Origin: Candidatus Micrarchaeota archaeon
GTDB taxonomy: Archaea > Micrarchaeota > Micrarchaeia > Norongarragalinales > SBBD01
Length of the DNA: 64,000 nt
Reading direction: 5' to 3'
Assembly (NCBI GenBank): GCA_043806595.1
Contig: JAZDGU010000018.1
Span: 1,400-65,399 of the forward strand
Shown here: positions 13,221 to 36,418 of the stretch, piece by piece
Layout: each line of letters opens with the position of its first letter
How positions within the stretch are numbered: the first letter of the stretch is position 1
Translations under genes and position numbers: made by a program
Notes under the pieces: generated by a model
Told to the model about the DNA's origin: nothing
Databases searched by the model: none
What the model saw: only the letters and a program-made list of their open reading frames with translations

Positions 13221-13250
13221 ATCTGCTCACCTTGGTTTGGGGGTATTGAG

Positions 13251-30191: not shown

Positions 30192-30200
30192 GCCTTATTT

Positions 30201-30948
30201 TCACCCTATGAAGCTTCCGTTGAGGTCGCCTTCCTTGGCGTAACCCCTGCTCTCCCAGTAGCCCTTGTAGCCCGCGTCGGCGGAGACTTCGATGCCCGTC
30301 ACCCACTTGATTCACTTGTAGCCCCACTTGCTCTCCGCGACGAGCTGGAAGGGAAAGCCCGTCTTCGGCGAGAGCGTCAGGTTGTCCTGCTTGTACGCCA
30401 GCAGGATGCCACCGTTGTTGCCAGAGTCGAAGTATTCCAGCGGGAACGACGTCGTATACCCGTCCGCGGCACGGAATATCCCGGTATTCGGGCCCGTAGT
30501 GGGCACGCCTGCTTGTGCAATCAAATCCTTCACCAGCACCCCCTTCCCACAACAGCCGTGCGGACCATCCTTCGACGCAGTCCAACTGTACGACCTTCGA
30601 GTAATGCGGCAGCGCCGCGGCATCACCAACCACTTCGTCGTATGTGAGGTTCACAGGCTCCGCCACCAGCCCGTAGATTTGCAGCCGGTACGCCCCGCGG
30701 TCGACGTATTGCGGCCCCTTGATGCTGTTCTCCCGCAACACGCTTGGCGCATCCAGCCGTGTCCCGTTGTACGCAAGGACGATGGTCTCGTTGAGCGTCA
30801 TGGGCATTGACGGAATCTGGCCAGCAGGAGAATTTCCCCCGCGCCAGACTCCTGGAATCATCTGGCCTTCCATTCGCGGCCGTTGTATGTAGGCATACCA
30901 GACGAGGAAGAGGAGTCTCGCGAGCATGATAGCCGAAATTACCGCCAT
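30201..30948 (-). pseudogene. Sulfite-oxidase-family molybdopterin oxidoreductase (YedY/MsrP-like), disrupted by a frameshift and an in-frame TGA
   Basis: N-part frame gives signal anchor MAVISAIMLARLLF...LDCVEGWSARLLWEG. The second frame continues VLVKDLIAQAGVPTTGP...FPLEYFDSGNNGGILLAYKQDNLTLSPKTGFPFQLVAESKWGYK, then TGA, then IKWVTGIEVS. The frameshift maps to the GGGGG run near 30543. The TGA is at 30311-30313. Confidence 0.6.
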
Positions 30949-31303
30949 TGCCGTTGTAATAGAAATTGGTGAGGCTTGCGGGGCAGGAGAGGATTGCGAG
31001 CTTAGAGCCGCAGGAGATCTTGGTTGGGCGGCCGCCGCATGTGATGTTTTCCTGGACTTTTCGTCTTTTTGGCGCGTGGCATGGACGGGTTGGGCCGGGA
31101 CGAACGTATAAAGAAGAGGTTTAAGCCGTAAAGGCATCGCTGCGAGCAACACCATCGTCCTCCAGTCCGCAAAGGCAAGGCGCAAGCGTTTCCCGACCAC
31201 GGGCAAAGGACTTCGCGATACTGGGGGTGGCAACGATGATAATCACGTGCGCGCTCGTGCTGGCATGGATGGCGGTTGTGGGATGGGTTTCGTGATTGAT
31301 TAG

Positions 31304-33151
31304 CTAAGGCCGGATTTTCGATCGGAAATAGTTTTCAGTATTCTTATCCATAAAATAGACGTAACAACCCTTATGTGCTCTTGACATTAACACTCGGTAA
31401 ACGTTTTGAAGATGTTGAGTGAATTTTGAGTTATTTCTTTTTACCATATTATCAAAAGACTTGTCAGGATTGCTCTTCCATTTTCCAAGTTTGGGTTCAT
31501 AGACCAAGTCTTCTCCAAAAATTACCCCTATATAATCAAATTCGAATCCTTGGGCGGTATAAACCGTACCTACTTGCTGCATTCCGGTATCATCAGTTGC
31601 CCATTTCCAGAAATCATTCTTTTGTTCCCACGGCATTTTGAAATCCCCAATTACGACGTCATTAACCAAGCTTTTGTCTGGTTTGGGTTCGCTCCACCGC
31701 CAATTAAAACCTGCGACTATACGAGCGCAATTCTTTTTTTCCAGATTTTTCTGGTCTATTGCTGCCTTGAGATCAAGCGGGCTTGAGAAAATCTTGAAAT
31801 CCATTCTTTCGTTCTTTTCCAGGAATTGTTTCTCCGTTTCTGTGATTCCGAGGATATTCTCAACCCATTGGAGGAACGAATCGGAGCCACTACACCGGAA
31901 TTGAGTTTTTAGATCGAATTCAGAAATTTCTGCATCGAATTTCTTCGCTGAATCTCGAATTAATTGAGTACTTCCAACTTCATTTGGCCTCACTACCTGA
32001 TGTTCATCGATAAAGAAAATAGACATCATTGCAGGTCTAATCAAATCGTTGATTTGCGGCTCCTTTGACCTGAATTGATTGGGAACCCCGTAATTGTTGC
32101 TGTCTTTGCGAATACGGTGTGCCTCGTCGCAGATTAAGACGTCGATTTCATTATCTTGGTGTTTACTGAAACTGTAGAAGAACCTGAACCTGTCCTTGAG
32201 CCTCGAGCCCAAGATTTTTTGCAAAGTCTTTGTGAATGCCGACGATCCGGTTGCATGGTATGGGATTTTGTTCATAGACATGAGTTCGGCCATAACTTGG
32301 AGAGCAATTACCGATTTTCCAGTTCCCGGCCCTCCTTTAACTATTATTACTGATTTTTTTCCATCCTTTGCTAGCTTTTTGGCGTTATGCATTATTGCGT
32401 TATAGGCGACAATCTGATCGTCGATTAAATTGAAGACTTGCTGCTGATTTAGCATTTCTTTAGTGTGTTCGAGAAGTTTCTTGGACGGCCTTATCGGCGA
32501 ATAATTGAATTTCTTAAGAACTTCCGCACCATCGCCGTGGGATAATCTTTTTCTTATGTATTCTGAAAGGTTAGGGACCTCCTCCTTGAGAAAAACCGGA
32601 TATTTCTGAATATCATTACGGAATTTTTCAGACTGCAGCAGATTATTTGATTTGTTCGTGTAATTGTGACAATATGCGCAACCGCTCAATTCCAATTTTC
32701 CATCTTCTTGGAAAGCGGTATTATAGTCGGTTAACCCGTAATAGTATCCTTCAACTTGAAGCGATGGATGGGGCTTGACTTCCCATCCCCAACTGTATTC
32801 TACTTGTAGATTCCCGTCGGCTTCACAATCTCGGACCTTCTCGTTAGACCATTGTTTCAATTCTACCAAAACGACATTTCCTTTCTTAAGTTCATCCTCC
32901 CCGAAAACCATCACATCTATCCTTCGCGATGCGAATGGAAGTTCATATTCTACCGTCATCATGTTTTCGGACATCTTGGAATACTCGAAAACGTTTTTCA
33001 TGAAGTTTAGTGACACGTTCCAAGAATTAGCTTCCGATGAATTGACATTTCTACCATAATAGTCACGATATCGTTGTTTCATTTTGTCTACAAGAGAATT
33101 CTGAAGCATTTCTTGCGAAAAGTTCTGGATTGTTCCTTCGAATAGCCTCAT
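31304..33151 (-). CDS. PD-(D/E)xK nuclease-like N-domain fused to DUF2075-type P-loop NTPase (Schlafen/UvrD-like ATPase)
   Basis: N-terminus RRIDVMVFG...VVLVELKQW (D...E.K nuclease triad). Walker A KGGPGTGKS, Walker B VLICDEAHRI. Low-GC codon usage unlike the flanks. Confidence 0.7.
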   Translation of the reverse strand: MRLFEGTIQNFSQEMLQNSLVDKMKQRYRDYYGRNVNSSEANSWNVSLNFMKNVFEYSKMSENMMTVEYELPFASRRIDVMVFGEDELKKGNVVLVELKQWSNEKVRDCEADGNLQVEYSWGWEVKPHPSLQVEGYYYGLTDYNTAFQEDGKLELSGCAYCHNYTNKSNNLLQSEKFRNDIQKYPVFLKEEVPNLSEYIRKRLSHGDGAEVLKKFNYSPIRPSKKLLEHTKEMLNQQQVFNLIDDQIVAYNAIMHNAKKLAKDGKKSVIIVKGGPGTGKSVIALQVMAELMSMNKIPYHATGSSAFTKTLQKILGSRLKDRFRFFYSFSKHQDNEIDVLICDEAHRIRKDSNNYGVPNQFRSKEPQINDLIRPAMMSIFFIDEHQVVRPNEVGSTQLIRDSAKKFDAEISEFDLKTQFRCSGSDSFLQWVENILGITETEKQFLEKNERMDFKIFSSPLDLKAAIDQKNLEKKNCARIVAGFNWRWSEPKPDKSLVNDVVIGDFKMPWEQKNDFWKWATDDTGMQQVGTVYTAQGFEFDYIGVIFGEDLVYEPKLGKWKSNPDKSFDNMVKRNNSKFTQHLQNVYRVLMSRAHKGCYVYFMDKNTENYFRSKIRP

Positions 33152-33157
33152 AAGAAT

Positions 33158-33535
33158 CTACAACTCATTATATTTTTTATTTGAACCGCGTGATTTCTCG
33201 ATTGGATACTTTTTCTCATTCTTTTCCATCTTCTTTTCAAGAGCCGATGCAAGGTCGATGTCGTATTTCTGGGCTAGCCTGAGCAGGAAGTAGAGCACGT
33301 CGGCCATTTCTTCGGAGATTTCCTCCTTCTTGTCGGCGTTAGCAAACATTTCCTCGATTTCCTTATCGGATTTGAAGCGAAAGTGCTCCAAAAGCTCCGA
33401 GGATTCGGTAGTGACGCCGATGGCTAGGTCTTTGGCACCGTGGTATTGGTCCCAGTCGCGTTCTTCGCAGAACTGCCTGACCTTAACCTTCAACTCATGA
33501 AGGCTAGTCTTGTCGTCCGTCATCAATGCCCCCAT
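33158..33535 (-). CDS. MazG-like all-alpha nucleoside triphosphate pyrophosphohydrolase
   Basis: EExxE-type motifs TTESSELLEHF and EEMADVLYFLLRLAQKYDIDL. The start is taken at MGALMTDD. The upstream extension to 33685 is out-of-frame overlap with the HNH gene. Confidence 0.65.
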   Translation of the reverse strand: MGALMTDDKTSLHELKVKVRQFCEERDWDQYHGAKDLAIGVTTESSELLEHFRFKSDKEIEEMFANADKKEEISEEMADVLYFLLRLAQKYDIDLASALEKKMEKNEKKYPIEKSRGSNKKYNEL

Positions 33536-33578
33536 CGGTTTCTCTTTAATATTGTTGAATGAATCGGTTTTTATTAAT

Positions 33579-34280
33579 TCATTCAATCTTTGCCCGCTTT
33601 TGAAGATTATGTCGTGCGCATAATATTTGGATATTTTCGACAAGCAAAGACGTCCCTCCCTTCGAATAAGGAAGAACATGGTCAAAATGAAGATTATCTT
33701 TTCTGTGGCACTTTATACACTGTCCTTTATCCCTTTTCCAAACTTCAAGTTTAACATTAGACGGAATTAAACGAGAGTGTTCCAAATCGGTTGTATCTTC
33801 AATCTCTTTCCCTTCAGCAATCTCCAAACGAAACTTGAACACCTGCCGGCCATCACTGGCTTCTTGCCAAGCATTAACTAATCTAAACAACCCGTTGAAA
33901 ACCCAAATTCCAGGCTTGAGCTTCTCATATACTTTAACGAGTTCTGGCTCCGGTTTATCATTCTTGCAACGGATCGCTGCGTCATAAAATAGTAAATTTT
34001 GAGTTGGACTTCCGTCAGAATCGCGAGATGGTTGATCTACGGACTTTGGGTTGCCAGTTACTTCACGTCTTGAAATATCGTGGCCTTCATATATCAGCAC
34101 TTTTCCGTTTTCTTCTACCCGGTCTGCATAGGGGGCGTTGGGTCGTAAACTCATTAAAATTACACTAACGTTGCGTCCCTTGAGATGGAAATTCATTCCC
34201 CTTTGAAGGCTAGAACCTTCCTCTGAACACATTTCCCAATAAGAAATGACGTCTCCCGGTTTGATCACGCAAGCCCCCAA
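33579..34280 (-). CDS. HNH endonuclease with N-terminal PUA-like (SRA/EVE-like) putative modified-base-binding domain
   Basis: C-terminal HNH CIKCHRKDNLHFDHVLPYSKGG...NIQILCARHN. N-domain segments KVLIYEGHD and PGIWVFNGLFRLVNAW resemble the YTGSGG / YDGIYKV strands of SRA-type domains. Confidence 0.65.
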   Translation of the reverse strand: MGACVIKPGDVISYWEMCSEEGSSLQRGMNFHLKGRNVSVILMSLRPNAPYADRVEENGKVLIYEGHDISRREVTGNPKSVDQPSRDSDGSPTQNLLFYDAAIRCKNDKPEPELVKVYEKLKPGIWVFNGLFRLVNAWQEASDGRQVFKFRLEIAEGKEIEDTTDLEHSRLIPSNVKLEVWKRDKGQCIKCHRKDNLHFDHVLPYSKGGTSLLVENIQILCARHNLQKRAKIE

Positions 34281-34472
34281 ACAATTTGTTGAGCTAGTAC
34301 TTAAATACCATTTGACGACACTATTAGACTTTCCTTTCCCTTTTATTCCTCCTCTTCCCCTGCCTTCCCTGCCTCTCGCTTTCCTGCCGTAACCCTTCCC
34401 CCGGCCTTTTCTCCCCGCAGCGCTGGAACTGCGGAAGAAGGATGTGCAATCGTGTTGGGCGCATGCGTTGCC

Positions 34473-35843
34473 TTACATGTCCTGCAGGTCGAAGGCGAGG
34501 TAGCCCGCGTTGCGGAGCTTGTTCTTGCCAAAGATCTTTCTTGCAACCAGGCCAAGCCGCGGCTTGGACGCGAGCCCGTTCACGTAGCCTGCCTTGCGCT
34601 CAAGCGCCTTGAATTCCTTCAGGGGTTGCGTGACTTCCGCCCACTTGAATTCGAAGGCGTAAACTTTCTTGGCTGAGTCCTGCGCCATCAAGTCGATTTC
34701 GTACGCGTCCCTCCCCTTTTCGCCGCCCCCGATTTTTCCCCACTGCCGCCTTGCCTTGTACAACCCGAGCTTTCCGACGGCGAATTCCCGCGCGGCATAC
34801 TCGAAGGCCCTGCCCGAGTATGCGCCGAGGCTGCCCTTCACCGAAGAAATGAATCCGGGGTCCCTTGAGGCGTATTCCGAGTAACGCCGGTTGATTGCGG
34901 TGAACCAGAAGCGCATGAGTGGGTGCTTGAGGCGGTATGCGCCGCGCTTGCCGGAGAAAGGCATTTCCAGTTCGATGAGCTCGAAGTAGTCCTTGAGCTC
35001 GTTCACCTGCCGCGTTATGGACGTGGAAGGCGTGTTCAAGGACGCGGCGATGGAAGAAAGGGTGTTGCTTCCGTCGGCAATCGCCTGCAGGATGGAGTAG
35101 TACGTGCCGCTCCTTCCCCCAAATTCCTGGGACAGGATGCCCGTCACCTCGTCTTCGAGGGGCGCGTTCTTGGCCAACAGGAGCGCGTCGATGATTTGTG
35201 CCGCGGTCTTTCCTTGCAGGCCGTAGTCTTCGGCCGCGACGTAGTATTTGGGGTAGCCGCCGAACACGCCGTAGAGTTCGACCAAGTCCTCCTTGCGGAG
35301 GGAAAGCTCATTGCCGAAGTCGAAGCACGACGAGAGGGATAGGGGCTCCAACCTCCAGTTTTTCTTCACCCGCCCGTAAAGGGGCTCCTTGGCGTCCTGG
35401 AAGGCGCTCTTCATCAGCCCGATCAGCGAGCCGGATAGGACGACAAGGCCCGGCGAGCCCTCGTTCAAGTCGATTGCCTTTTGGAAGGCGCCGAATGCGG
35501 CTGGCTCGACGGAATTGAAGTTCTGGAACTCGTCGAATACGACTACGCCGGGGTTGCGTTTCACGAGCGCATCGGCGAACTGGTCCCACGAATGCACGGA
35601 TTCCAGCGCGCCAAGCGCGCCGTGCTTGCGTAGGATTTCCTGGAATTCCTTGAGCAGCTCGCCCGACGGCTTGTTCTTGTTTACAAAAAAATACGCGCCC
35701 CGGTCTTTGAGGAATTCCACCAGCAGCCGGGTCTTCCCGACCCGCCGCAGCCCGTACAGTGCGACGATGAAAAGCTTTTTCCTTGAAAGCGTTTCGAGTT
35801 CCCTTAGTTCCTCAAGTTCCGCGCCCCTATCCACAAACTTCAT
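34473..35843 (-). CDS. Archaeal ATPase (PF01637-like) with C-terminal DUF234 domain
   Basis: N-terminus FVDRGAELEEL...LYGLRRVGKT (Walker A), Walker B VVVFDEFQ, and a DUF234-type C-terminal region. Confidence 0.65.
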   Translation of the reverse strand: MKFVDRGAELEELRELETLSRKKLFIVALYGLRRVGKTRLLVEFLKDRGAYFFVNKNKPSGELLKEFQEILRKHGALGALESVHSWDQFADALVKRNPGVVVFDEFQNFNSVEPAAFGAFQKAIDLNEGSPGLVVLSGSLIGLMKSAFQDAKEPLYGRVKKNWRLEPLSLSSCFDFGNELSLRKEDLVELYGVFGGYPKYYVAAEDYGLQGKTAAQIIDALLLAKNAPLEDEVTGILSQEFGGRSGTYYSILQAIADGSNTLSSIAASLNTPSTSITRQVNELKDYFELIELEMPFSGKRGAYRLKHPLMRFWFTAINRRYSEYASRDPGFISSVKGSLGAYSGRAFEYAAREFAVGKLGLYKARRQWGKIGGGEKGRDAYEIDLMAQDSAKKVYAFEFKWAEVTQPLKEFKALERKAGYVNGLASKPRLGLVARKIFGKNKLRNAGYLAFDLQDM

Positions 35844-35968: not shown

Positions 35969-36418
35969 TCAGAGGTGGACAATTTCCAAGCCGGCGCTGA
36001 AATCCTTCTTCAGTCTCTCGGCGAGGATGCTGCGGTGGCATTCGCTTGCCTTGGCTTCCATGCACAACAGGCAGGCTTTCTTCTCCCGAACCAAATCGGA
36101 AAGGTCCGACAGGTTGCCGTTTAAGTAGTCTAGGTGCTTGGAATAGCCGATAAAGAATTCATCGTAGTCCCACGCCTGCGCGAGTTCGTTGCGCAAGGCC
36201 TTGGGAGCGCCCCATTTCGAGTCGTGGGCGTATTCGATGCCCGCTTTTTCAATGGCATTCTTGAGATTGGACTTGCAGAAGCCTTTCTTGTGACTCCAAG
36301 GCAGCTGGCGGCTGTCGACCAAAACCTCGACCTTATTATCAACAAGGGACTGCGTGAGTTGCTCCAGCGTTTTCCCTTGGTATCCAATAGTATACAAACG
36401 CATTACGGCCTCTCCCAT
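35969..36418 (-). CDS. DUF488 family protein
   Basis: MRLYTIGYQGKTLEQL...LVDSRQLPWS matches the DUF488 N-terminal signature. The true start is probably the Met at 36403. Confidence 0.55.
   Translation of the reverse strand: MGEAVMRLYTIGYQGKTLEQLTQSLVDNKVEVLVDSRQLPWSHKKGFCKSNLKNAIEKAGIEYAHDSKWGAPKALRNELAQAWDYDEFFIGYSKHLDYLNGNLSDLSDLVREKKACLLCMEAKASECHRSILAERLKKDFSAGLEIVHL

Follow-up and report, generated by a model that had tools for sequence, protein, structure and literature searches.

Known systems and the locus under study

Nhi and the Nhi-like proteins, which combine a nuclease with a DUF2075/superfamily 1 (SF1) helicase, are proven anti-phage proteins (bioRxiv 10.1101/776245; 10.1101/2022.05.11.491447), and Nhi acts alone (10.1101/776245). 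SRA-HNH enzymes such as TagI and ScoA3IV cut DNA carrying 5-methylcytosine (5mC) or 5-hydroxymethylcytosine (5hmC), those characterised also acting alone, and the occurrence of modification-dependent enzymes beside DUF2075 NTPases has already been remarked upon (PMC6765204). In systems with a PUA sensor, MazG-like domains take the place of calcineurin-CE, an effector that depletes deoxynucleoside triphosphates (dNTPs) (bioRxiv 10.64898/2026.01.15.699771). Here we describe a locus of three genes, A, B and C, from a 64,000-nucleotide (nt) stretch of the 74,283-bp contig JAZDGU010000018.1 of a Candidatus Micrarchaeota metagenome-assembled genome (the window), which are predicted to encode an SRA-HNH protein, a DCTPP1-like MazG and a nuclease-helicase of Nhi-like architecture, respectively. 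Each of these gene families alone was already known; what appears to be new is a conserved MazG partner of the Nhi-like helicase, together with the modular joining of this pair to HNH nucleases. Within the searchable library, no literature was found that links MazG to DUF2075, Nhi/Nhi-like or Schlafen proteins in anti-phage defence.

We read the locus as a horizontally acquired mini defence island of two separable units, aimed at base-modified invader DNA, and assign this reading a probability of roughly 0.55. The first unit would be a single-gene type IV enzyme, in which the SRA domain recognises a 5-substituted cytosine of invader DNA by flipping it out and the HNH domain cuts nearby; the second would be a conserved two-gene module, usually translationally coupled, consisting of the DCTPP1-like MazG and the nuclease-helicase. 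All three genes are intact and lie in the same direction on the minus strand at 31,304-34,280 (coordinates are positions in the window), with spacers of 43 nt between A and B and 6 nt between B and C. An earlier sequence-only reading had described three co-directional genes about 43 and 6 nt apart, and the open reading frames (ORFs) lie exactly where it had placed them. The island, its genes and their domains are as follows (aa, amino acids; GC, guanine plus cytosine; GC3, GC at third codon positions).

31290..34345, minus strand: low-GC island of about 3.05 kb, horizontally acquired (GC profile, GC3)
34268 (GTG, the NCBI start; alternative TTG at 34280) to 33579, minus strand: gene A, SRA-HNH, 229 aa, 100% identical to NCBI P0121, "HNH endonuclease", Candidatus Micrarchaeota
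33816..34262, minus strand: predicted SRA (PUA-superfamily) modified-cytosine reader domain of gene A (Pfam SAD_SRA, profile against PDB, fold search)
33585..33719, minus strand: predicted HNH nuclease domain of gene A (Pfam HNH, HNH_5)
33535-33158, minus strand: gene B, predicted DCTPP1/RS21-C6-like all-alpha (MazG-like) dNTP pyrophosphatase, 125 aa (Pfam, PDB homology)
33151-31304, minus strand: gene C, Nhi-like nuclease-helicase, 615 aa, 100% identical to NCBI P0001, which is annotated with a later start
32366..33151, minus strand: N-terminal restriction-endonuclease-like PD-(D/E)xK domain of gene C (conserved residues)
32915-32917 (D79), 32861-32863 (E97) and 32855-32857 (K99), minus strand: catalytic candidates in the N-terminal domain of gene C (conservation)
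31346..32356, minus strand: DUF2075/Schlafen-group-3-type SF1 helicase domain of gene C (PF09848)
32312-32335 (Walker A, GGPGTGKS) and 32117-32128 (Walker B, DEAH), minus strand: motifs of gene C (motif reading)

Conservation of the MazG and nuclease-helicase pair

Comparison of gene neighbourhoods identified MazG and the nuclease-helicase as a conserved yet facultative two-gene module. We sampled 80 genome loci with the same helicase architecture (35-62% identity), 78 of which were evaluable for an upstream MazG. In 39 of these MazG is located immediately upstream of the helicase and on the same strand, with gaps of -1 to 53 nt and often ATGA overlaps, and in 10 more it is present at another place in the locus. 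Six archaeal lineages (Woese-, Micr-, Nano- and Thaumarchaeota, Methanosarcinales and Thermoplasmata) and some 14 bacterial phyla are represented among the sampled helicase loci. Of the six closest relatives, five likewise have MazG ahead of the helicase, as do both full-length relatives on viral contigs; the loci fetched for the plasmid relatives H1 and H3 contained no MazG. Carriers of the module include cultured hosts (loci L020, from Parageobacillus caldoxylosilyticus NBRC 107762, L052, and L055, from Paraburkholderia haematera LMG 31837; L-numbers label the fetched relative loci). A search of 5,426 complete E. coli genomes found nothing closely matching the Enterobacteriaceae version (L043).

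A reverse sample of 80 metagenomic MazG loci, binned by identity to the window's MazG, gave a helicase next to MazG in 14 of 18 loci at 55% identity or above, 2 of 10 at 48-55%, 8 of 22 at 44-48% and none of 16 below 44%, with the more distant MazGs occupying housekeeping or other contexts. Antisense ORFs that overlap MazG in high-GC loci (L046, L043) gave spurious matches and were excluded. No gene family besides MazG was conserved around the helicase across the 80 genome loci, in which the window's DUF234 and DUF488 genes did not reappear.

Features of the nuclease-helicase

The product of gene C matches the Pfam family SLFN-g3_helicase (formerly DUF2075, PF09848) at 4.9e-89 over residues 266-602, covering profile positions 1-354 of 354, and its GGPGTGKS and DEAH motifs are invariant among 26 homologues. 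Its 262-residue N-terminal domain carries invariant E68, D79 and E97-x-K99. These features agree with the PD-(D/E)xK nuclease joined to a DUF2075 ATPase that had been proposed from sequence, and we judge the N-terminal domain to have the nuclease fold although a Foldseek search with it was non-significant; because of that search result, we regard the assignment of the fold as good yet short of certain. The N-terminal domain family comprises 2,347 representatives at 50% clustering, 1,291 of them at E <= 1e-10, nearly all of which are proteins of about 620 aa or versions of about 800 aa. The same domain also contains nearly invariant H128, C158-x2-C161 and H162 (residues 128-164, window 32660-32770), which could form a metal site.

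Searches with PADLOC models gave partial matches only for gene C, to Nhi (3.5e-13, residues 163-468) and AbiO (1.5e-14), both at the helicase, and to PDC-S41 (3e-22, residues 410-600). Gene C thus shares with Nhi (S. epidermidis SERP2475) and Nhi-like (Millman et al. 2022) an N-terminal PD-(D/E)xK-type nuclease followed by a DUF2075/SF1 helicase, but the Nhi model covers residues 163-468 rather than the full length expected of a family member, and the N-terminal domains have no detectable sequence relation. Further, the C-terminal glyoxalase-like domain of Nhi is missing from gene C, the host of which is an archaeon, and whereas Nhi and Nhi-like are single-gene systems, the gene C family is accompanied by a conserved MazG at roughly half of its loci, if not more.

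Gene C is also a DUF2075 paralogue of the PDC-S41 candidate, membership of which was rejected: the match is limited to the final ~190 model residues (3e-22), whereas a true member, at L023 7942-9945, scores 6e-273. A second DUF2075 paralogue, about 660 aa long, directly adjoins the module at this position and at L005 3954-5930, L045 7934-9913 and L185 1705-3681; of the four copies, the one in L023, which was scanned against PADLOC, is the PDC-S41 match.

About one third of the close helicase relatives (many of P0003-P0117) are longer, at about 790-815 aa, and end in a LexA/UmuD-type Peptidase_S24 domain, as exemplified by L004 6001-8388 (domain at residues 682-780); such proteins may become active by cleaving themselves upon a RecA/single-stranded-DNA-type signal. 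The peptidase is also one of the features that would suit a non-immune DNA-repair or replication-stress module, in which house-cleaning of damaged dNTPs is paired with a repair helicase-nuclease and which landed beside a restriction gene. RadC recurs as a neighbour and MazG-family enzymes are classic house-cleaners, both in keeping with such a role. We nevertheless regard this explanation as very improbable, given that the pair has a patchy, horizontally transferred distribution and lies here on low-GC foreign DNA, is found on plasmids and two viral contigs, and has an architecture common to the proven defence proteins Nhi and Nhi-like. Defence genes, among them restriction, BREX and PDC genes, are moreover over-represented next to it, which bears out the defence-like context suggested by the sequence-only reading.

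Features of the DCTPP1-like MazG

Gene B matches the Pfam family MazG-like (PF12643) at 8.9e-16, with 58.4 bits against a cut-off of 27, and residues 11-125 align with the mouse and human DCTPP1 structures (2a3q/6sqw) at 3.2e-19. Residues E44, E47, E76, D79, W28 and H32 are invariant among 32 operon-linked homologues. The EXXE...EXXD tetrad corresponds, at an offset of +19, to E63/E66/E95/D98 of mouse DCTPP1, the metal-binding residues of that enzyme. With the whole of gene B alignable, the tetrad intact and the stacking Trp conserved, the protein is DCTPP1-like rather than a generic MazG, which narrows the MazG-like NTP pyrophosphatase named in the sequence-only reading. It differs from DCTPP1/RS21-C6 in being prokaryotic and in its operon with a nuclease-helicase, and its substrate preference is a prediction; Trp73 of DCTPP1 is replaced by Phe in the archaeal subclade. 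The protein matched no model in PADLOC-DB v2 (2023).

These features bear on the main alternative to our reading, namely that MazG is a triggered killing effector: the nuclease-helicase would sense infection and unleash MazG, which would drain canonical dNTPs and bring about abortive infection. Defence by depleting dNTPs is established, MazG-like domains can stand in for calcineurin-CE, the effector that depletes dNTPs in PUA-sensor systems, and the translational coupling observed here suggests a stoichiometric complex with the helicase. Set against this, the MazG of the module is a bare catalytic domain of 115-125 aa with no regulatory part, its close relatives are constitutive genes in housekeeping contexts, and DCTPP1, the closest homologue to have been characterised, cleanses the nucleotide pool with a preference for modified dCTP. 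In addition, the helicase partner would already supply an effector, since its own nuclease motif is intact. On balance we consider a MazG effector unlikely, although it is the strongest of the competing explanations.

The SRA-HNH protein and its described relatives

For gene A, the HNH domain scores above the Pfam cut-off (1.7e-6, 28.5 bits against 21.4), with HNH_5 also matched, while SAD_SRA falls just under its gathering cut-off of 30.7 (2.1e-6, 28.0 bits) and covers 137 of 148 profile positions. A profile built from 26 homologues matched the SUVH5 SRA domain at 8.7e-5 in a search against the PDB. Using an AlphaFold 2 (AF2) model (predicted local distance difference test score 73.5), Foldseek recovered the SUVH5 SRA in complex with methylcytosine DNA (E 2.9e-7, TM 0.68-0.70 on the target), as well as ScoMcrA, UHRF1 and MspJI, with SRA domains bound to 5mC/5hmC DNA among the matches. 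The HNH motif (CxxC...H-F-D-H...N...CxxH-N) is intact, and C184, C187, H194, D196, H197, N212, C217, H220 and N221 are invariant across the 26 homologues. The PUA/SRA-like and HNH architecture anticipated by the sequence-only reading was therefore recovered, the SRA fold of the N-terminal domain by modelling and fold search and the HNH domain by Pfam. No DNA methyltransferase stands beside gene A: the island consists of three genes only, and the flanking genes lack such a domain.

Taken together, sequence and model place gene A in the known SRA-HNH class of type IV modification-dependent restriction enzymes (TagI/ScoA3IV type). Like TagI, ScoA3IV/Sco5333 and ScoMcrA, it joins an SRA reader to a C-terminal HNH domain with no partner methyltransferase; it differs in being shorter (229 aa), in being about 15-24% identical to the solved relatives, in that its specificity is predicted, and in its joining to MazG and a helicase. 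With the PUA-Calcineurin-CE-HAD system and its rare MazG variants (bioRxiv 10.64898/2026.01.15.699771), the island has in common a modified-base reader of the PUA superfamily accompanied by a nucleoside-triphosphate enzyme. In that system, however, the reader is fused to the phosphoesterase and HAD is required, whereas in the island the reader is fused to HNH, the 125-aa MazG is separate and no HAD gene is present. Assignment to the PUA-Calcineurin-CE/MazG-HAD systems was rejected on these grounds, the SRA being fused to HNH and the island lacking HAD. The earlier statement that this trio as one operon matches no named system needs a qualification: single parts do fit named families, namely TagI/ScoA3IV-type type IV enzymes and the Nhi/Nhi-like architecture.

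Modular joining of HNH nucleases to the pair

SRA-HNH genes lie beside the helicase in 2 of the 80 genome loci (L004 and L074) and in 1 of the 6 closest relatives (L183), and were found in none of the 80 loci of the MazG-ascertained set. When SRA-HNH and VcaM4I-like HNH_2 nucleases are counted together, an HNH nuclease occurs within 300 nt of the module in 13 of 109 loci, to which L004 and the window add two. SRA-HNH is one of several interchangeable HNH nucleases that join the MazG and helicase pair in about 14% of loci. The 147 genes immediately adjoining the module include more members of HNH_2 (9) than of any other family; next come DUF3427 methyl-directed restriction enzymes (mREase_IV, two proteins), BREX and PDC candidates. 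The catalytic half of the ~310-aa HNH_2 proteins matches VcaM4I (6YEX), a modification-dependent EVE-HNH enzyme, at 3.4e-14.

The order seen in the window recurs with HNH_2 in place of SRA-HNH: HNH_2, MazG and helicase follow one another with 4-nt overlaps in L137 and L131, and surviving fragments at L072, L077 and L112 fit the same order. In L074, from a gammaproteobacterium, the order is instead MazG, helicase and SRA-HNH, with overlapping codons. HNH_2 is also coupled to a MazG behind it where this helicase is missing: a small ORF comes next in L021, and an HIT-PLD-ResIII protein in L117. Compared with the window, the L074 helicase is 36% identical and its SRA-HNH 50% identical; these discordant identities indicate repeated assembly of an HNH nuclease with the pair, not descent of one inherited operon.

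The sequence-only reading had proposed a single three-gene operon system, and an obligate three-component system, functional only when complete, would be its strongest form. The three genes do share one island, one strand, the same foreign composition and short spacers (43 and 6 nt), and they were found together elsewhere, in a tight operon at L074 and in part at L004 and L183, with the HNH_2 operons of L137 and L131 as analogues. A fixed trio is nonetheless improbable. In addition to the scarcity of SRA-HNH at both helicase and MazG loci, gene order and orientation vary between cases, three close SRA-HNH homologues (64-67% identity) are solitary amid unrelated genes, and both the characterised SRA-HNH enzymes (PMC6765204) and Nhi (10.1101/776245) work alone. 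What survives of the proposal is the co-occurrence of the three families, and none of the conditions that the sequence-only reading had named for its own refutation was borne out; the conserved unit is MazG with the nuclease-helicase.

A comparable association has been described for the McaZI group (Lutz et al. 2019, PMC6765204), in which DUF3427-type enzymes lie beside DUF2075 NTPases, and the two DUF3427 mREase_IV neighbours of the module resemble it; the MazG partner and the SRA-HNH and HNH_2 versions are absent from that study.

Several further genes were observed near the module. The N-terminal ~180 aa of HNH_2 proteins carry a motif TDxDW..FL...EVNFWQPSG (L137 3042-3581, L021 11848-12387), and a 163-aa ORF of this domain alone directly follows MazG at L098 626-1117. 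As a candidate SRA relative the domain failed a profile-profile test, with the HNH core alone weakly aligned; it is possibly an uncharacterised modified-base reader. DUF3427/PLD/ResIII-type methyl-directed restriction helicases cluster with HNH_2 and MazG at L117 1557-2870, where the protein has an N-terminal HIT domain, and at L131 3-1925, and at both loci MazG is densely surrounded by likely modification-dependent nucleases. Another gene that is repeatedly found close to MazG encodes a PDDEXK_1 nuclease (L001 4043-4678, L003, L004 1564-2313, L010 4988-5644, L011, L074 8990-9772, L186 6948-7514 and L088 2830-4026), which in L010 and L088 overlaps the MazG start; in L001 and L074 it is matched by Cas4 models and has the four-Cys signature. 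In two of the closest relatives a Lactamase_B_2 (metallo-beta-lactamase-fold) gene is found upstream of MazG, directly in L183 (3163-4626) and with one 237-aa ORF between in L187 (1465-2868), and an HAD hydrolase occurs near the module in L184 and L187.

Origin and flanks of the island

Over 31250-34250 the GC content, in 500-nt windows, drops to 0.39-0.45, compared with 0.57-0.67 on either side. The island genes have a GC of 0.40-0.42 against about 0.6 in host genes, and GC3 is 0.44 for gene C and 0.38 for gene A, compared with 0.76-0.92 in confidently coding host genes. This contrast is far beyond chance, and the compositional island noted by the sequence-only reading is clear in both measures. 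From the GC drop and the low GC3 relative to host genes, we conclude that the island represents a recent horizontal acquisition of defence genes by a DPANN archaeon. No tRNA, integrase, or direct or inverted (att) repeats were found at its edges, in line with the unmarked boundaries reported before; the sole tRNA of the whole window, tRNA-Val, is at 13250. The remaining features of the island and its flanks are listed below.

34300..34307, minus strand: TATA-box-like element TATTTAAG, putative archaeal promoter, 20-39 nt 5' of the two candidate starts of gene A (sequence reading)
33536..33578, minus strand: 43-nt spacer between A and B, containing TTAATAAAAA (33568-33577), which may serve the MazG and helicase pair as an internal TATA-like promoter (sequence)
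34473-35843, minus strand: DUF234/archaeal ATPase gene, upstream of the island (Pfam)
30200-30950, minus strand: sulfite-oxidase-type Mo-binding oxidoreductase pseudogene, downstream of the island (frameshift near 30600; TGA for a conserved Trp at 30314-30312)

Both flanking genes named by the sequence-only reading are present. The Mo-oxidoreductase is decayed by one frameshift and one TGA in place of a conserved Trp, and once repaired its translation matches PF00174 over the full domain (1.6e-23). On the other side, the DUF234 ATPase lies at the position listed above; it matches the PADLOC candidate PDC-S27 (1.9e-36), and the DUF488 gene (35969-36418, minus strand) matches PDC-M19A (7e-38). 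GC3 is host-like in both (0.79 and 0.70, respectively), and the island may have inserted into a pre-existing defence neighbourhood formed by these genes. As candidate parts of the module, the PDC-S27-like and PDC-M19A-like genes were rejected, as they never adjoin it in other loci.

Proposed mechanism and points against it

From the domains and intact active sites described above we infer the biochemical activities of the three proteins, the substrate of MazG and a cooperation between the two units. The SRA-HNH protein would nick or cut base-modified viral DNA, after which the helicase-nuclease would load on viral replication intermediates or broken ends and degrade them as Nhi does. MazG, acting constitutively, would hydrolyse non-canonical dNTPs, most likely 5-modified precursors of dCTP type. 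This could have two consequences: hypermodifying viruses would be starved of their special nucleotide, and modified nucleotides released by degradation would be kept out of host DNA, sparing the host from its own type IV enzyme.

A number of points weigh against this interpretation. The whole case is computational, and the substrate of MazG could be any dNTP. About 40-47% of the loci that encode this helicase have no MazG, and MazG homologues at 40-60% identity also occur in housekeeping contexts, for example beside ribosome recycling factor (RRF) or low-molecular-weight (LMW) phosphatase genes; for these reasons the partnership is a facultative one. The divergence of MazG co-varies weakly with that of the helicase (Spearman 0.29, p 0.016), and the linked MazGs cluster only in part. 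The HNH_2 N-terminal domain belongs to no Pfam family and gave no match to SRA in profile comparison; modified-base reading by these proteins is assumed from their architecture. To our knowledge, no virus of Micrarchaeota with 5-modified cytosine has been described.

Implications

A broader proposal, which we put forward tentatively and hold to be possible rather than probable, is that MazG and the PD-(D/E)xK-DUF2075 protein constitute a two-gene defence system, so far overlooked, that is widespread in Archaea and many bacterial phyla, with at least 1,300 clusters at 50% identity, and is specialised against modified-pyrimidine viruses. In such a system, MazG would destroy the modified dNTP pool and shield the host genome from its salvage, with SRA-HNH and VcaM4I-like HNH_2 nucleases as optional plug-ins. 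If so, this would be the first instance of a MazG-type house-cleaning enzyme serving in defence, and would bring together, in prokaryotes, the ancestors of two families of animal genome guardians, DCTPP1 and the Schlafen helicases. Should the pairing prove functional, the sanitising or starving of modified nucleotide pools would join the known immune strategies, and the frequent adjacency of type IV restriction enzymes to DUF2075 ATPases would be explained. It would also offer a testable answer to how cells with modification-dependent nucleases avoid self-restriction after the recycling of modified nucleotides.

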